NCBI GenBank assembly: GCA_964415965.1
Contig: CAYQCK010000003.1
Coordinates: 67,426 to 131,425, forward strand
Origin: an uncultured Gammaproteobacteria bacterium
GTDB taxonomy: Bacteria; Patescibacteriota; Patescibacteriia; 2-12-FULL-60-25
Direction: 5' to 3'
DNA: 64,000 bases
The position numbers and the translations under genes were made by a program. Under the pieces are notes generated by a model. It worked only from the letters and a program-made list of their open reading frames with translations, was not told the DNA's origin and searched no databases. This document shows positions 28,510 to 52,387 of the stretch, in pieces (the stretch's first letter is position 1; each line of letters starts with the position of its first letter).

Positions 28510-29328
28510 CTAGCGGACAATCGTCGCCCTGTCACGCCTCACGCTTCTGGCGATGAAGACCGCGCACGCGGCGATTACGGCCAGATACAACGCCGGATAG
28601 GCGAACTCGACCGCGAACCGCGGGTACGGCAGGACACGCAGGGAGTGGTTAGCCAGACGGAAAACCGTCAGCCCAAGCAGGAATCCGGCCGCCGGCACGC
28701 CGCGTGGCGCCTGGCGTTTTCGCAGCCACACGGCCAAACCGGAGCCGGCCAAGGCTGCAGCGCCCTCGTACAGCTGCGTCGGATGGACCGGCAAGACAGC
28801 GAACGGCCCGGTCAGCCCCTGGGACATCTGCGCCAGATGGGCCTGGCTGAACAACGGATATTCCACGGCCCAAGGCAAGCCCGTCGGCCGACCGAAACAG
28901 CAACCATTCAGGAAACAGCCGAGGCGCATCACGACCAAACCAACGCCGAACGCCGGCGCCGCGGCGTCGGCGAAACGCAAACCGTCGAGCTTCAGCCGGC
29001 GGGCTACGACCCAAGCTGCGGCCGCGGCGGCGGCCAATCCGCCATAAAGCGAAAAACCTTCGGCCTCCAAAGCCACGGCCCGCCAGGGCTGGCTAAGGTA
29101 AAAATCCGGACGGAGCAGGATATTCGCCAGTCTGGCTCCGACCAGGAACGCCAGGACGGCCGCGCCGAGGACAAAGGCCGCCTGCCGGCCGCGGACGCCG
29201 TCTTGCCGCCATGACCAGACCGCGAGTCCGCCGGCCACGACCAAAGCCGCCGCCAGGCACGACCGGTAATATCCGACCTCCCCTGCCCCGAACGGCAGGT
29301 CGAGGTAGCGCGGTCCGGCTTGGATCAT
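28510..29328 (-). CDS. lgt: Prolipoprotein diacylglyceryl transferase
   Basis: Lgt signature HPTQLYE and a polytopic membrane profile. Confidence 0.88.
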   Translation of the reverse strand: MIQAGPRYLDLPFGAGEVGYYRSCLAAALVVAGGLAVWSWRQDGVRGRQAAFVLGAAVLAFLVGARLANILLRPDFYLSQPWRAVALEAEGFSLYGGLAAAAAAAWVVARRLKLDGLRFADAAAPAFGVGLVVMRLGCFLNGCCFGRPTGLPWAVEYPLFSQAHLAQMSQGLTGPFAVLPVHPTQLYEGAAALAGSGLAVWLRKRQAPRGVPAAGFLLGLTVFRLANHSLRVLPYPRFAVEFAYPALYLAVIAACAVFIARSVRRDRATIVR

Positions 29329-31406
29329 TTTTTGCTGGCCGCGACGCTCGCTTTGATCTTCAGCATGCCTTTGTAGTCGATGCTCAAACCGCCGCCGATC
29401 TTGGGCTTGTCATCATCATCCTTGCTGGCATCGAAGGCGATGGTGGCCACGGCTTTGTCCTGGGTGAACGAACCGCTCAAGACGCCCTGGTCGTAGGTGA
29501 TGGGCACCTCGCTCGTCTTGTCGCCGTTCTTTATGGTCAGGGTGCCGCCCGTCTCGCCGCTCGCCTTGAGGTTGAACTCCATGGGCGATTGTTTGCCCTT
29601 AAGCTTCTCGAAATCGATGTCCAGGTCGCAGCCTTCATCCTCTTTCTTGCCGCTCGCCTTCTGTTCCTCCTGGGCTTTCTTGAGCTCGTCCGAGACGATG
29701 ACGTCGGTGATGGTCATCTGCCCGGACCAGGCGCCTTCCAGCTCCTTGAGCGTCGGGTAGAGCGAGACATTGAACCGGTCCTTGAGGAACTTGGCGTAAT
29801 CCTTCTTGCCGTTCGGACCCGAGAAGTAGATGCGCACGCCCTGCACCAGGTCGTCGACCGACACGGCCTTCTCGGCGACGAGGCCGGCCTTGTCCGTCAG
29901 GTCGAACCGGTTGATGTCCTTCATCATCTTGTCGATGAAATGCCCGACGACATCGAGCTTGGTCTCGTGGTCGAAACCCTTATCCAAACCGATCGGGCCG
30001 GTCGCGGAATCGAAGATGCCGCCGGCTTTGAGTCCGTCCATTATCCGGATAAGCTTCTTTTCCTGCTCGGCCAATTCGTTCTCGCGCTCGAGCCGCGTCG
30101 CGAACTGTTTACGGTACTGCTCCTTGAGCTGGTTGCGCAGGGCGTCGGCCTGCGCCTCGCTCAGCGGCTCCATCCCGGAATCCCGGCGCACCGCGTTGGC
30201 CTGCCGGATAGCCTCGAGCTCGATCTGGCGGCGGATGCCGCGCATCTGGTCCCAGACCGCGTCGAAGTCCTTGGCGTCGTTGTTGTAGCCGTAGAAATAT
30301 CCGCTCGAACCGTCGCGGTAGGCCTTGAACGCCGCCTCGACCTCTGAGTTCTTCCAGGTCCTGATCTCGTAGTTCGTGATGGCGACCGCCGCCTTGCCGG
30401 CCACGCCCAGGATGAACTGGTTCGTGATGAAGTCGCCGATCTCCTTGGCCGCATCCTTATACTCGCCCTCGACCGCGTTGCCCGCCGCCTTGCTGATGGC
30501 CGCGGTCGCGCCCGTGACCTTGAGCGCCTTGAGCGCGTTCTTGATGAGGGGCGCCGGCACCTGCCCGACGATCTTCTTGCCGATGAGCGTCTTGAGCTTA
30601 TCGTCGAAGACCTGGTTGTTCGTCTTGTAGTAGCCCTCCATCGCCTTGTATTCCGGATCGTCCAGCATCGACCTTAGCACCTGGTTCTTGGTTTCCGTGT
30701 CGTTGATGCCGAGCTTTTCCATGCTCAGGTCCAAGGCCTGGGCGCTGTAGGCGTCGTGCGGCTTGGCGATATCCTTATTGAGGCCGTCCTGCAGGGCCTT
30801 GGCCTTGATCCAATCATTCGTGATCTTGTCGTCGCCTTTGAGCTTGGTCGGGGCCAGAAGGCTGAAATGGTACAACCCCAAGGTCATGACCCCGGACGTC
30901 ACGTCCACGTTGTCCGGTTTGAGGTAATCCCACTCCTGGCCGTTGTAGTAGGCCACACGGAGTCGGGCGATGTCATCGGCCGAAGTCGTGCCGGCCGGAA
31001 TCTTGAACGCGACCGTCGCCTTATCCTCGAGCCGCACCGGCTTTCCGGTGGCCGCGATCTCGATGGGCGCTCCCACCATCTCGGCCGTATCCTTGTCGTA
31101 GGCCGGGATTTTCTCCGGCGTCACCAGTTCGACCTTGGTCGACGTGCTAAAGCTGCCTTTGGCCACGGTGACCGAAGCGCCGTCCTTTTCGGTCCGGCCG
31201 AGCAGGACGTCAGCCTGGCCGGTTTCGCCTTCCAAAGGTTGGGCGATGGGGCGCTCATCGATCGCGAGCAGATCGCTCTCAAGATTCGGCTTGGCCGCCG
31301 GACTCGGGACCGGTTTTTGGCCGCCACGCGGCATTAAAAAATAAACCGCCCCGGCTATCAGGCACAGCCCGACGGCCCCGGCGACGGCGATAAGGGGTTT
31401 CTTCAT
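29325..31406 (-). CDS. Large secreted/membrane-anchored hypothetical protein (693 aa)
   Basis: N-terminal signal anchor (MKKPLIAVAGAVGLCLIAGAVYFL). K/D-rich, no recognisable domain. Overlaps the lgt start by 4 nt. Confidence 0.55.
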   Translation of the reverse strand: MKKPLIAVAGAVGLCLIAGAVYFLMPRGGQKPVPSPAAKPNLESDLLAIDERPIAQPLEGETGQADVLLGRTEKDGASVTVAKGSFSTSTKVELVTPEKIPAYDKDTAEMVGAPIEIAATGKPVRLEDKATVAFKIPAGTTSADDIARLRVAYYNGQEWDYLKPDNVDVTSGVMTLGLYHFSLLAPTKLKGDDKITNDWIKAKALQDGLNKDIAKPHDAYSAQALDLSMEKLGINDTETKNQVLRSMLDDPEYKAMEGYYKTNNQVFDDKLKTLIGKKIVGQVPAPLIKNALKALKVTGATAAISKAAGNAVEGEYKDAAKEIGDFITNQFILGVAGKAAVAITNYEIRTWKNSEVEAAFKAYRDGSSGYFYGYNNDAKDFDAVWDQMRGIRRQIELEAIRQANAVRRDSGMEPLSEAQADALRNQLKEQYRKQFATRLERENELAEQEKKLIRIMDGLKAGGIFDSATGPIGLDKGFDHETKLDVVGHFIDKMMKDINRFDLTDKAGLVAEKAVSVDDLVQGVRIYFSGPNGKKDYAKFLKDRFNVSLYPTLKELEGAWSGQMTITDVIVSDELKKAQEEQKASGKKEDEGCDLDIDFEKLKGKQSPMEFNLKASGETGGTLTIKNGDKTSEVPITYDQGVLSGSFTQDKAVATIAFDASKDDDDKPKIGGGLSIDYKGMLKIKASVAASKK

Positions 31407-31491: not shown

Positions 31492-32583
31492 CTATTCCTC
31501 CAGCGGAGGCAATTCTTCGCCTTCTTCGGCCGGCGCCGGCGGCAAGCGCGACGAGCTGCCGTTCTCGGCCAGTTCGCGTTCGCGCCACAGGGCGATGACC
31601 TTATCGCGGATTTCCTTGTGCAGCTGGGGACGCTCGCGCAACCCCATCTTGGCGTTCTCGCGGCCGATGCCCAGCTTCTCGGCGCCGTAGGCGTACGAGT
31701 TGCCCGACTTCTTGATGACTTCGTATTCGGTCCCCAGGTCGAGCAGGTCGCCGACCAGCGAGATGCCTTCGTTGTACATGATGTCGAATTCGCAGGTGCG
31801 GAACGGAGCCGCCACCTTGTTCTTCACGATCTTGCACTTGACCCGGTTGCCCAGGATCTTCTCGCCCAGCTTGATCTGGGCCGAGCGCCGGACCTCGACG
31901 CGCAGCGAGGAATAGAACTTGAGGGCCACGCCGCCGGTCGTCGTTTCCGGGTTGCCGAACACGACCCCGATCTTTTGACGCAGCTGATTGATGAAGATGA
32001 CTACCGTCTTGGTCTTGGACACGATGCTCGTGAGTTTACGCAGCGCCTGGCTCATGAGCCGGGCCTGGAGCCCCATGTGCGACTCGCCCATCTCGCCCTC
32101 GATTTCGGCCTTCGGCGTCAGGGCAGCCACGGAATCGACCACGACGACATCGACCGCGTTGGAACGGACAAGCGTCTCGACGATATCCAACGCCTGCTCC
32201 CCCGTATCCGGTTGCGAGATGAGGAGCTCGTCGACGTTCACCCCGATCTTCCGGGCGTAATCCGGATCCAGGGCGTGTTCCGCATCCACGAAAGCCGCGA
32301 TGCCGCCCATCTTCTGCACCTCGGCGATGATATGCTGGGCCAGGGTCGTCTTGCCCGAGGCTTCCGGACCGAAGACTTCGATGATGCGGCCGCGCGGAAC
32401 CCCCAGGACGCCCAATGCCAAATCGAGCGACAGGCAGCCAGTAGGCACGGCGTCCACGGCCATCTTCTTGGCCTCGCCGAGCCGCATGATGCTCCCCTCG
32501 CCGAAGCGTTCCTTGATCTGGTCGATAGCTTCTTGCGCCGCTAAACGGCGTTCGTCGCGCTCATCAGTTGGTTTTTTCGCCAT
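31492..32583 (-). CDS. recA: Recombinase RecA
   Basis: Full-length RecA with Walker A (GPEASGKTT) and L1/L2 loops. Confidence 0.98.
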
Positions 32584-32611: not shown

Positions 32612-32630
32612 GTGTTCTAATTTTGTTCTA
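32612..32630. promoter_or_regulatory. Putative SOS (LexA) box upstream of recA: TAGAACAAAATTAGAACAC (minus strand)
   Basis: About 29 nt upstream of the recA start. 18/19 identical to the motif upstream of lexA (GTTC-N7-GTTC direct repeat). Confidence 0.55.
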
Positions 32631-32747
32631 CTCTCTCATATCCCACCTTACCATGCAAGAATCCGGATGTGGATAAAATAAATCAAGAGTAACGACCCCG
32701 AGCCAATGGCGCTCGGGGTCGAAGTTTATGAAAGCCAGCCTATTGGG

Positions 32748-49737: not shown

Positions 49738-51072
49738 TCAAAAAACCTTATTCATCGGCTCGACCCCTTCCACTTTCCTGAACCCGATGCGGTCCGGCGC
49801 CTCGTCGCCCAGGCCCAACATCTGCCCGAACACGATGGCCTCGTCGCCGTAGCGGTCGCGGATGGTATCCGCAGCCAACGACGCCTGCCGCTTGCGGTCC
49901 ATGCGTCGATCCCACGGTAGGGGCGATTCATGGATCGCCCCTACCGTGGCCAACCTCCGTTGCCCCGACGGCGGCGCTAGGTTGGTCAGCGTCACGGCCA
50001 AGAAGTTGACCCGCTCGCCGTGCCACAACTCGCGCAGGAGCCCGGTCGCGGCGCCGACCAGCGAGAACGAATCCGCGGCCGGTTCGTCGAACAGGGTGTA
50101 GAGCGTCCCGCCCTCGCCCGCGCTTGGCGTCCAGAATGGCCCGCGCGGCAGGCCGTAATTATCTTCACGGAACCCCACACTGACGTACACCGCCCCGGCA
50201 AAAAGCCCCACGGCGCGCAACCGCCGGCCGGCTCGTTCGGTCAGCTTGACCAAAGTCGCCAGCACCTTGCCCTCGCGGTTCACCCGATCCGGCACGCAGT
50301 ACGAATGGCCGACCGACTTCGGGAGAGGCGCCGCGTCGGCACCGACCACGTCCTCGACCTCCAGGCCGTTGACCTTGGACCACAGGTAGAATCCGTTCTT
50401 GCCGAAGGCGCGCATCAGGTTGCCGACCGGATAGCGCTTGAGCTCGAGGAGCGTCCGGATGCCGATGCGGTTAAGCCGTTTCTTGATGCGCGGCCCGATG
50501 CCGCACACGTCCTCGAGCTCGAGCTCGGCCAGGACTTCGTCCAGGTTGCCGTGGTCGATGACGACCAAGCCGTTCGGTTTTTCGAGGTCCGACGCGGTCT
50601 TGGCCAGGAAGCGCGTCGGCGCGATGCCGATGGAGCAGCGCAGCCACTCCCCGACCTCATCGCGGATGCGCCGCCGCGCTTTACAGAGCGCCCAGGCCGC
50701 CTCAGCCGGGTCGCGGTACCAGCCGGTGAGATCGAGGAAGGCCTCATCGATGGAATAGTGCTCCACCTTGTCCGAGAGCTGGTGCAGGATGCCGAACACG
50801 CGCGAGGTCACGGCCCGGTACTTGGGCGGGTCGTTTTGGACGAAGACCGCGCCCGGCACGGCTTTCTTGGCCTCCTCGACCGACATCCCGACCTTCATGC
50901 CCAGCCGCTTAGCCTCGATGGACGCCGCGATGACGCACCCGGCCTTGTGCAGGTAGGCGCACACGCCCAACGGCCGTCCGCGCAACGTCGGGTTGGCCTG
51001 CTGCTCCACGGACGCGAAATACGAGTTCATGTCCACGTGGGCGACAAGTTTCTTGGACGGTTGGAGGGACAT
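49738..51072 (-). CDS. dinB: DNA polymerase IV (Y-family)
   Basis: HVDMNSYFASVEQ N-terminus, catalytic SIDEAFLDL, little-finger domain. Confidence 0.92.
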   Translation of the reverse strand: MSLQPSKKLVAHVDMNSYFASVEQQANPTLRGRPLGVCAYLHKAGCVIAASIEAKRLGMKVGMSVEEAKKAVPGAVFVQNDPPKYRAVTSRVFGILHQLSDKVEHYSIDEAFLDLTGWYRDPAEAAWALCKARRRIRDEVGEWLRCSIGIAPTRFLAKTASDLEKPNGLVVIDHGNLDEVLAELELEDVCGIGPRIKKRLNRIGIRTLLELKRYPVGNLMRAFGKNGFYLWSKVNGLEVEDVVGADAAPLPKSVGHSYCVPDRVNREGKVLATLVKLTERAGRRLRAVGLFAGAVYVSVGFREDNYGLPRGPFWTPSAGEGGTLYTLFDEPAADSFSLVGAATGLLRELWHGERVNFLAVTLTNLAPPSGQRRLATVGAIHESPLPWDRRMDRKRQASLAADTIRDRYGDEAIVFGQMLGLGDEAPDRIGFRKVEGVEPMNKVF

Positions 51073-51194: not shown

Positions 51195-51440
51195 TCACAG
51201 CGTCGCCATCTCCTCGAGCTTCCAAGTGAGGGCATCCGTCGAGAACGACAGCCGATAGGCATTCGCCTCGTCCGAGACCGAAAAAATCACCACCTTCTCG
51301 CGGCCGCGGCGCTCGCTGTGCACCAGATTCACCTTCCGCACCTGGTAATAATGCCCGTTCCACTTGAAAGTCATGGGCTCCACGCCGTTCTTGCGGAAGG
51401 CAACCAGGACGTCGATTGTCTGCGCGATTTTTTCGTACAT
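51195..51440 (-). CDS. Small hypothetical protein between lexA and dinB (81 aa)
   Basis: In-operon position, same strand. No known domain. Confidence 0.45.
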   Translation of the reverse strand: MYEKIAQTIDVLVAFRKNGVEPMTFKWNGHYYQVRKVNLVHSERRGREKVVIFSVSDEANAYRLSFSTDALTWKLEEMATL

Positions 51441-51486: not shown

Positions 51487-52107
51487 TTATCTGAACTCAA
51501 ACTTCCGTATCACCGCCCTCACCACACCCTGGATGAGCGGGTCAAAGCAGTAGATGGGCTTCATCGTGGAGTTGGCCGGCTGCAGCCTGATGCGGTCGCG
51601 TTCGCGGTAGAACCTTTTGAGCGTGGCGTATTCGTTGTCCAGGAGCGCGACGACGACATCGCCGTTCTTGGGCGAGGGATTCCTCTCTACCACCACGTAA
51701 TCGCCGTCGAAGATGCCGTCCTCGATCATGGAATCGCCTTTGACGCGCAGGACGTACGAATTGGCCGAATCCGGGGCCAAATCCACGGGCACGGCGAAGG
51801 TCTCGCGCTCCTCCACGGCTTCGATGGGCGCTCCGGCCGCGATCAGGCCCTTCAGAGGAAGCAGGACGCTCTTGCCCCACATCACAGCCTTGTCCGTCGG
51901 CTCGAGGTTGCGCGCGCCCGGACCCGCTCCCCCGCCTTTCAGGAAACCGCGCTCCTTGAGCGCCTGGATGTGCACATGCACGGTCGAAGGCGAGGCTAGC
52001 TCCAATCCGTCCGCGATCTCGCGGAACGACGGCGGATAACCCTTGTCGTTGATGAAGCTCACGATGTAGTCGAGGACTTCTTTTTGTTTGGGGGTTAAAG
52101 GAGGCAT
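51487..52107 (-). CDS. lexA: LexA repressor
   Basis: N-terminal wHTH, Ala-Gly cleavage site region, and an S24 peptidase domain with Ser/Lys dyad. Confidence 0.95.
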   Translation of the reverse strand: MPPLTPKQKEVLDYIVSFINDKGYPPSFREIADGLELASPSTVHVHIQALKERGFLKGGGAGPGARNLEPTDKAVMWGKSVLLPLKGLIAAGAPIEAVEERETFAVPVDLAPDSANSYVLRVKGDSMIEDGIFDGDYVVVERNPSPKNGDVVVALLDNEYATLKRFYRERDRIRLQPANSTMKPIYCFDPLIQGVVRAVIRKFEFR

Positions 52108-52118
52108 ATGTTTGATGT

Positions 52119-52145
52119 TTGTTCGTTAGAACAAAAATAGAACAC
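52119..52145. promoter_or_regulatory. Putative SOS box upstream of lexA: TAGAACAAAAATAGAACAC, overlapping the palindrome TTGTTC-gtta-GAACAA
   Basis: About 20 nt upstream of the lexA start. 18/19 identical to the recA-upstream motif. Confidence 0.55.
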
Positions 52146-52387
52146 TTGCAACCATCTGTCAAACTCCATATTTCCATGGGAAAACATGCTTTTTCCACAC
52201 CTCCAACCAGCGGTTGACGCCTAGCGATGGCCACGACCCCGTTGGATCGGACAGGTGCCCTACCCCATCGCGCATCTGCGCACGGCATACCCGCGCAGCG
52301 CATGCTCCCGCAACCCATCCTGCAGTCCGGGCCTCGATTTCGTCGGGGCATTTTTATTCCGCCGGTTTATTGGTACGCTGATGGCAT

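Follow-up and report, generated by a model that had tools for sequence, protein, structure and literature searches.

The recA and lexA genes of an uncultured bacterium of Candidatus Uhrbacteria (Parcubacteria, CPR/Patescibacteria) are each preceded by a copy of the same direct-repeat motif, and the two copies are very probably the operators (SOS boxes) of the bacterium's own LexA, which would control the recA and lexA promoters through them. This reading of the sequence brings together the autoregulatory position of the site upstream of lexA, the overlap of the sites with core promoters, the occurrence of such sites at recA and at polymerase genes, their conservation among relatives, and the presence of a cognate LexA. 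The analysis concerns a 64-kb stretch of DNA, referred to below as the window, together with related loci from other genomes; the features of the window are collected in the table.

Each box consists of two exact TAGAACA heptads arranged head to tail with a start-to-start register of 11 bp, the recA box reading TAGAACA-AAAT-TAGAACA-C on the recA strand. The two boxes are identical at 18 of 19 positions; the recA box ends 28 nt before the recA start codon, and the lexA box 19 nt before that of lexA. Relative to its own gene, the box at recA lies in the orientation opposite to that at lexA. A shared 19-nt motif in these two places, with this degree of identity and with the opposed orientation, had been reported in a preliminary description of the window and was found as described. 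The core was there assigned to the GTTC-N7-GTTC direct repeat, i.e., the alphaproteobacterial arrangement, and this agrees with the lexA promoters of S. meliloti, Cereibacter, and Sphingomonas. It was also correctly distinguished from the Gram-positive palindrome, as no GAAC-N4-GTTC is present at either promoter. The search pattern given there, TAGAACA-N5-TAGAACA, requires correction, since the heptads are separated by 4 nt and not by 5 nt.

The extended pattern, with up to two mismatches allowed, was found twice in the window and not once in 100 dinucleotide shuffles. A weight matrix was also derived from 42 sites upstream of lexA in other species, with the nearest relative left out; in a scan of the window with this matrix, the lexA and recA boxes scored far above both the next best site (10.8 bits) and the maximum reached in shuffled sequence (13.8 bits). 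The lack of matches in the shuffles and the distance of the two scores from the next best rule out chance as the source of the boxes. The weight-matrix scan indicated no further regulon members in the 64-kb window. No enrichment was seen for the bare core GAAC-N7-GAAC (4 occurrences in the window against 2.7 expected), and the signal therefore resides in the extended heptads. A structured-RNA reading of the sites was dropped, as a scan against Rfam returned no RNA family at the recA or the lexA site and a single tRNA elsewhere. An inverted repeat, TAAGGTG/CACCTTA, surrounding the recA box of the window is not kept in relatives and was also dropped.

Table. Features of the 64-kb window at the recA and lexA loci (positions are those of the window)
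Feature	Position	Strand	Details
recA	31492..32583	-	TIGR02012, 523 bits
recA SOS box (predicted)	32612..32630	-	TAGAACAAAATTAGAACAC on the recA strand; weight matrix 28.6 bits
Putative recA promoter	32630..32658	-	TTGCAT (32658-32653), 17-nt spacer, weak -10-like GAGAGT (32635-32630)
DnaA-box-like TTATCCACA	32668..32676	-	9 nt upstream of the putative recA -35
Terminator-like hairpin of the gene upstream	32693..32721	-	Bounds the recA promoter region
Y-family (DinB/Pol IV-like) translesion polymerase gene	49738..51072	-	IMS domains
orf81	51195..51440	-	Small gene between lexA and the polymerase gene
lexA	51487..52107	-	TIGR00498, 168 bits; PF01726 and PF00717
Degenerate inverted box copy	52108..52127	+	GAAC-N7-AAAC on the lexA strand; overlaps the lexA start codon
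lexA SOS box (predicted)	52127..52145	-	GTGTTCTATTTTTGTTCTA on the lexA strand, equal to TAGAACAAAAATAGAACAC on the plus strand; weight matrix 35.7 bits
lexA promoter	52134..52162	-	TTGACA (52162-52157), 17-nt spacer, TATTTT (52139-52134); promoter scan, 10/12 matches
One-mismatch DnaA-box-like TGTGGAAAA	52191..52199	-	Read on the lexA strand; 56 nt ahead of the first GTTC in the lexA box

The LexA protein encoded in the window (206 residues) combines an N-terminal winged-HTH domain with an S24 peptidase domain. Its alignment to the E. coli and T. maritima LexA proteins locates the cleavage site at Ala91-Gly92 (AAG) and the catalytic residues at Ser126 (GDSM) and Lys164 (TLKRF), and by these features the protein looks complete and cleavable. 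The -10 hexamer of the lexA promoter coincides with the spacer of the lexA SOS box. At recA, a -10-like hexamer and the box overlap by one base, the final T of the hexamer. A consensus promoter scan called no promoter at the recA site, where the -10 is weak, and the recA promoter is treated here as putative, on the basis of the layout cTTGCrT-N17-nAnrAT-AGAACA kept in relatives.

Two genes follow lexA on the same strand. The first, orf81, codes for 81 residues and is present downstream of lexA in 67 of the 80 species compared; its only family match, to DUF6504, is sub-threshold (18.4 bits against a cut-off of 24.2), and it may act as an accessory factor of the SOS polymerase. The second codes for the Y-family polymerase, a homologue of which follows lexA in 53 of the 80 loci, as far as the fetched flanks extend. 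orf81 probably belongs to the same operon as lexA, with the polymerase gene probably being the last gene of that operon. Downstream of recA lies an ORF of 693 residues (29325-31406, minus strand) giving no NCBIfam match at E <= 0.001, while the relatives' gene at this position is FtsK/SpoIIIE-like.

With one genome per species scanned, the best relatives of the LexA protein come from metagenome-assembled genomes named Candidatus Uhrbacteria or Patescibacteria group (up to 98% identity), and the names attached to the RecA and LexA homologues are likewise Candidatus Uhrbacteria or Patescibacteria. The host had been described as an apparently non-alphaproteobacterial organism of high G+C content, which is consistent with this affiliation and with the 61% G+C of the window. 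The lexA comparison comprised 80 loci, one per species, with 483 kb of related DNA in total; 79 of the loci were assessable and one was incomplete. GTTC-N7-GTTC is present upstream of lexA, on the lexA strand, in an exact form in 76 of the 79 species and with one mismatch in three more, and the 11-bp direct register is invariant across the lexA promoters. In the closer group (LexA identity of 67% or more) the consensus is TTGACn-N13-GTTCTATTTTTGTTCTATAt, with TTGAC fixed 13 nt before the first GTTC and the box spacer serving as the -10 (TATTTT or TATATT). The distant group (LexA ca. 65% identical; L051-L080) has the lexA promoter consensus cTTGCGTTCGGTTTTTGTTCggtTATAATacGAACAnnnnnnGAACA and a different layout, with one box in the spacer between -35 and -10 and a second, inverted box downstream of the -10, at the expected transcription start. 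Seventeen lexA promoters of this group have GTTC-N7-GTTC followed, after 2-20 nt (ca. 12 nt), by GAAC-N7-GAAC, the two boxes lying around TATAAT.

Some local variation was seen among the lexA loci. The first box of the distant group overlaps the -35 (cTTGCGTTC, e.g., L053, 2940-3000), whereas the closer group has a single box. In L003, L005, L015, L019, L022, L027, L031, and L034, the SOS box and lexA are set apart by an additional 230-730 nt, and some of these insertions carry short tandem-looking repeats, e.g., ttggcattcgtaattcgtaatt.

The distribution of the motif over the related DNA follows the same genes. The 483 kb contain 125 occurrences of GTTC-N7-GTTC or GAAC-N7-GAAC; 93 of them fall in the 200 nt upstream of lexA, and some 13 others are found at displaced lexA or dinB promoters. 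In four species dinB is split from lexA by more than the small gene, and there a further box is located just upstream of dinB or of orf81-dinB. The orientation of the box is fixed for each gene across species: GTTC for lexA and dinB, GAAC for recA.

For recA, eight other RecA lineages (79-87% identical) were found by a RecA homologue search and their loci obtained by exact-protein look-up. All eight carry TAGAACAnnAnTAGAACA in the GAAC orientation, as in the window, with the second heptad changed to TCGAACA in one of them. In most of these lineages a -10-like hexamer follows 17 nt after cTTGCrT, and its last T is where the box starts. The T-rich spacer of the box is kept at recA, where the orientation precludes a role as -10, and it is for this reason taken to be part of the operator itself. 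In the recA promoters of L083, L084, and L089, the sequence TTGCrTGnTAAGGTTCT right after the -35 places an extra GTTC half-site in the promoter spacer, ca. 14 nt before the main recA box; the version in the window is degenerate (GGTAAGGTGGGAT, 32641-32650). A gene of the PF05635 family (23S rRNA intervening-sequence protein) is located just upstream of the recA promoter in L088 and L092-L094.

The most likely circuit, of the classical type, would operate as follows. The two TAGAACA heptads of each box, being one helical turn apart (the 11-bp register), are expected to lie on the same face of the DNA. The lexA box spans the -10 of the TTGACA-N17-TATTTT promoter, which probably drives a lexA-orf81-dinB operon, while the recA box, which shares its first base with the end of the -10-like hexamer, would extend over the transcription start. 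A LexA dimer seated on the box would occlude the -10 at lexA, or the -10 and the start at recA, and would block RNA polymerase because of this overlap, i.e., by classical promoter occlusion. After DNA damage, RecA filaments would trigger self-cleavage of LexA at Ala91-Gly92 via Ser126 and Lys164, and this would de-repress recA, lexA, and the translesion polymerase. An SOS circuit of LexA, RecA, and a translesion polymerase would thus appear to be intact and tightly wired in an uncultured CPR bacterium with a reduced genome. The detail added here is the promoter anatomy: the placement of the box on the -10 or on the transcription start, and its gene-specific orientation.

Other readings of the motif have to be weighed against this one. 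In the window, the lexA box and the degenerate inverted copy that follows it (TAAC-GAAC-N7-AAAC) make up a 46-bp imperfect palindrome (52104-52149) with 21-nt arms and 76% complementarity, and the 17 distant-group promoters with oppositely oriented boxes around TATAAT also have an inverted layout. Both could be taken to mean that the functional unit is a palindrome, with LexA binding either GTTC-N4-GAAC, in a Verrucomicrobia-like manner, or larger pairs of inverted boxes. This is quite unlikely, as most lexA promoters of the closer group and the recA site of the window have no inverted copy, and the gap between the inner half-sites varies (4 nt in the window, 12 nt in the distant group) while the direct register of 11 bp is invariant. 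With 10.8 bits, moreover, the additional copy in the window does not reach the best score from shuffled sequence (13.8), and apart from the window only its nearest relatives, L001 and L002, have it. A reading of the inverted second boxes as tandem operators is preferable, and by analogy with the distant group, where the second box is also inverted, the copy in the window may represent a weak additional operator. The inner junction of the window's pair, GTTC-TAAC-GAAC, resembles the Verrucomicrobia-type TGTTC-N4-GAACA. It is highly improbable that the motif is bound by another regulator, or that it is a mere AT-rich promoter element of two strongly expressed genes. The T-rich spacer at lexA does double as a -10; the same spacer is nevertheless kept at recA, where its orientation excludes this role, and the motif is confined to the promoters of lexA, recA, and dinB. 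GAAC is also the classical LexA half-site, and autoregulation of lexA is a hallmark of LexA boxes.

The SOS box of Alphaproteobacteria is of the GTTC-N7-GTTC type (PMC4951493, PMC9578287), and in Rhodobacter, Rhizobium, and Caulobacter it is located upstream of lexA and recA and occurs in both orientations, as it does here. The lexA promoter of S. meliloti carries GAACACATATGGAAC, that of Cereibacter GAAC-N7-GAAC-N7-GAAC, and that of Sphingomonas GTTC-N7-GTTC-N7-GTTC. The core geometry is identical to that of the Uhrbacteria box, both orientations are seen among the alphaproteobacterial lexA promoters, and a precedent for lateral transfer has been proposed in Acidobacterium capsulatum (Mazon 2006). 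LexA and its box might on these grounds have been acquired laterally from Alphaproteobacteria, i.e., be literally the alphaproteobacterial system; we consider this quite unlikely. In pairwise comparison the Uhrbacteria LexA shows no special affinity to the alphaproteobacterial proteins, being 42-43% identical to three of them and 42% identical to a Bacillus LexA. Counted from where helix 3 begins up to the Ala-Gly site, there are 51 residues here, 52 in Bacillus, and 74-85 in Alphaproteobacteria, whose linker is 25-35 residues longer. Helix 3 itself reads SPSTVHVHIQALKERG, compared with SSSTVHGHLSRLEEKG in Bacillus, and lacks the alphaproteobacterial signature. The operators differ as well: alphaproteobacterial lexA promoters often have three GTTC in tandem, and the spacers of their boxes are variable and GC-rich, whereas the Uhrbacteria spacer is a conserved T-tract. 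The preliminary description had implied a link to the alphaproteobacterial LexA and had suggested a comparison of the recognition helices; with an identity no higher than that to Bacillus, a short linker, and a different helix 3, the link is not supported at the protein level, and the comparison of helices itself speaks against it. As judged from these sequence features, an independent origin of direct-repeat binding is favoured over lateral transfer from Alphaproteobacteria.

A further element accompanies the two promoters. The DnaA-box-like 9-mer TTATCCACA upstream of recA is the only exact TTATCCMCA in the 64-kb window and a perfect match to the DnaA-box consensus TTATNCACA; in some relatives the 9-mer is TTATCCCCA, with a deviation from the consensus at position 7. 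Each of the eight other recA lineages has exactly one TTATCCMCA in ca. 3 kb, located 42-74 nt (mostly 46-50) before the operator. At lexA, the position of the element, -55 to -57, recurs in 18 related promoters, and in the 483 kb of lexA loci 36 of the 46 exact copies lie within 200 nt upstream of lexA, with about five of the remaining ten adjoining displaced lexA operators. When one mismatch is allowed, the 9-mer is found not more than 75 nt upstream in 56 of 78 operators, compared with 57 of 2000 random windows, and its positions cluster by group. Separately promoted dinB genes have no such 9-mer. TTATCC(A/C)CA thus accompanies the recA and lexA promoters across Uhrbacteria (the window, L051-L080, and L081-L094). 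A role of TTATCCACA as a general promoter element was rejected, given its single copy in the window and the location of 36 of the 46 related copies near lexA.

The factor binding this 9-mer could, by its sequence, be DnaA; neither a dnaA gene nor an origin is present in the 64-kb window. A combination of LexA and DnaA sites is known from the uvrB promoter of E. coli (PMC6015884), which likewise is an SOS promoter with LexA boxes and a DnaA box. The difference is that uvrB is one peripheral SOS gene, while here the predicted element accompanies the core genes recA and lexA throughout the lineage. A literature search returned no paper linking TTATCC(A/C)CA to Patescibacteria and no description of such a dual input, and the presence of the DnaA-box-like element beside the recA and lexA promoters may be a new side observation. 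That the core SOS promoters of this lineage receive two inputs, LexA and DnaA, is put forward only tentatively; a second and milder proposal is that a short-linker, Firmicutes-like LexA may have gained head-to-tail binding independently of Alphaproteobacteria. If DnaA does bind the 9-mer, recA and lexA would in an entire CPR lineage be under joint control of the initiator of replication, and if head-to-tail binding did arise independently, the Uhrbacteria LexA would be a good subject for studying how a dimer reads a direct repeat.

LexA proteins recognizing direct repeats have been described in several groups. Kilic et al. 2020 (PMC7739468) state that the recognition of direct repeats by LexA arose on several independent occasions, with reference to Erill 2016, Sanchez-Osuna 2017 for Patescibacteria, and Mazon 2006 for Acidobacterium capsulatum, and they add a direct repeat of their own from Balneolaeota. 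The system of Sanchez-Osuna, Barbe and Erill 2017 (Environ Microbiol 19:3465; PMID 28618189) concerns the same superphylum and is cited for a direct-repeat motif; the Uhrbacteria box, TGTTCTA-N4-TGTTCTA, is likewise a direct repeat. Table S2 of Sanchez-Osuna 2021 (PMC8565304) names two LexA proteins validated by experiment in the 2017 study, one from Microgenomates and one from an unclassified Parcubacteria genome. The validated Parcubacteria LexA is not among the best 120 LexA homologues listed here, all of which are close Uhrbacteria relatives. The core LexA regulon across phyla comprises lexA, recA, and error-prone polymerases (PMC8565304), and these match the genes seen in Uhrbacteria.

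Acidobacterium capsulatum (Mazon et al. 2006, Microbiology 152:1109) is similar in being a non-alphaproteobacterial organism with GTTC-N7-GTTC. Its lexA was attributed in that paper to lateral acquisition from Alphaproteobacteria, while the Uhrbacteria LexA has no alphaproteobacterial features. PMC4951493 cites Mazon 2006 as one of the reports on groups whose LexA does not control recA, and unlike those groups Uhrbacteria carry the box at recA. The preliminary description had regarded the occurrence of the motif in a non-alphaproteobacterial lineage as notable, which can hardly be maintained when direct repeats have already been published for Acidobacterium, Balneolaeota, and Patescibacteria. 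Because direct-repeat LexA sites outside Alphaproteobacteria, Patescibacteria included, are on record in this way, the finding is sound but ordinary, and on the present evidence it amounts to the correct recognition of an already described system, providing confirmation and detail and not a discovery. What remains of interest is a short-linker LexA dimer on head-to-tail half-sites and the DnaA-box-like element at the recA and lexA promoters.

At the level of the half-site there is a likeness to Firmicutes. The box of Firmicutes and Actinobacteria, CGAAC-N4-GTTCG, has inverted half-sites and a 4-nt spacer, whereas the Uhrbacteria half-sites are placed head to tail in the 11-bp register. Both systems nonetheless share the monomer half-site GAACA, and their recognition helices resemble each other in the N-terminal half (S-x-S-T-V-H-x-H). 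The Uhrbacteria half-site (T/C)(A/G)GAACA, which takes the form TAGAACA in the window and CGAACA in the distant group, matches the CGAACA of Firmicutes. A Firmicutes half-site set in a direct repeat fits the idea of an evolution of LexA motifs through the rearrangement of similar monomer sites into different structures (PMC4951493).
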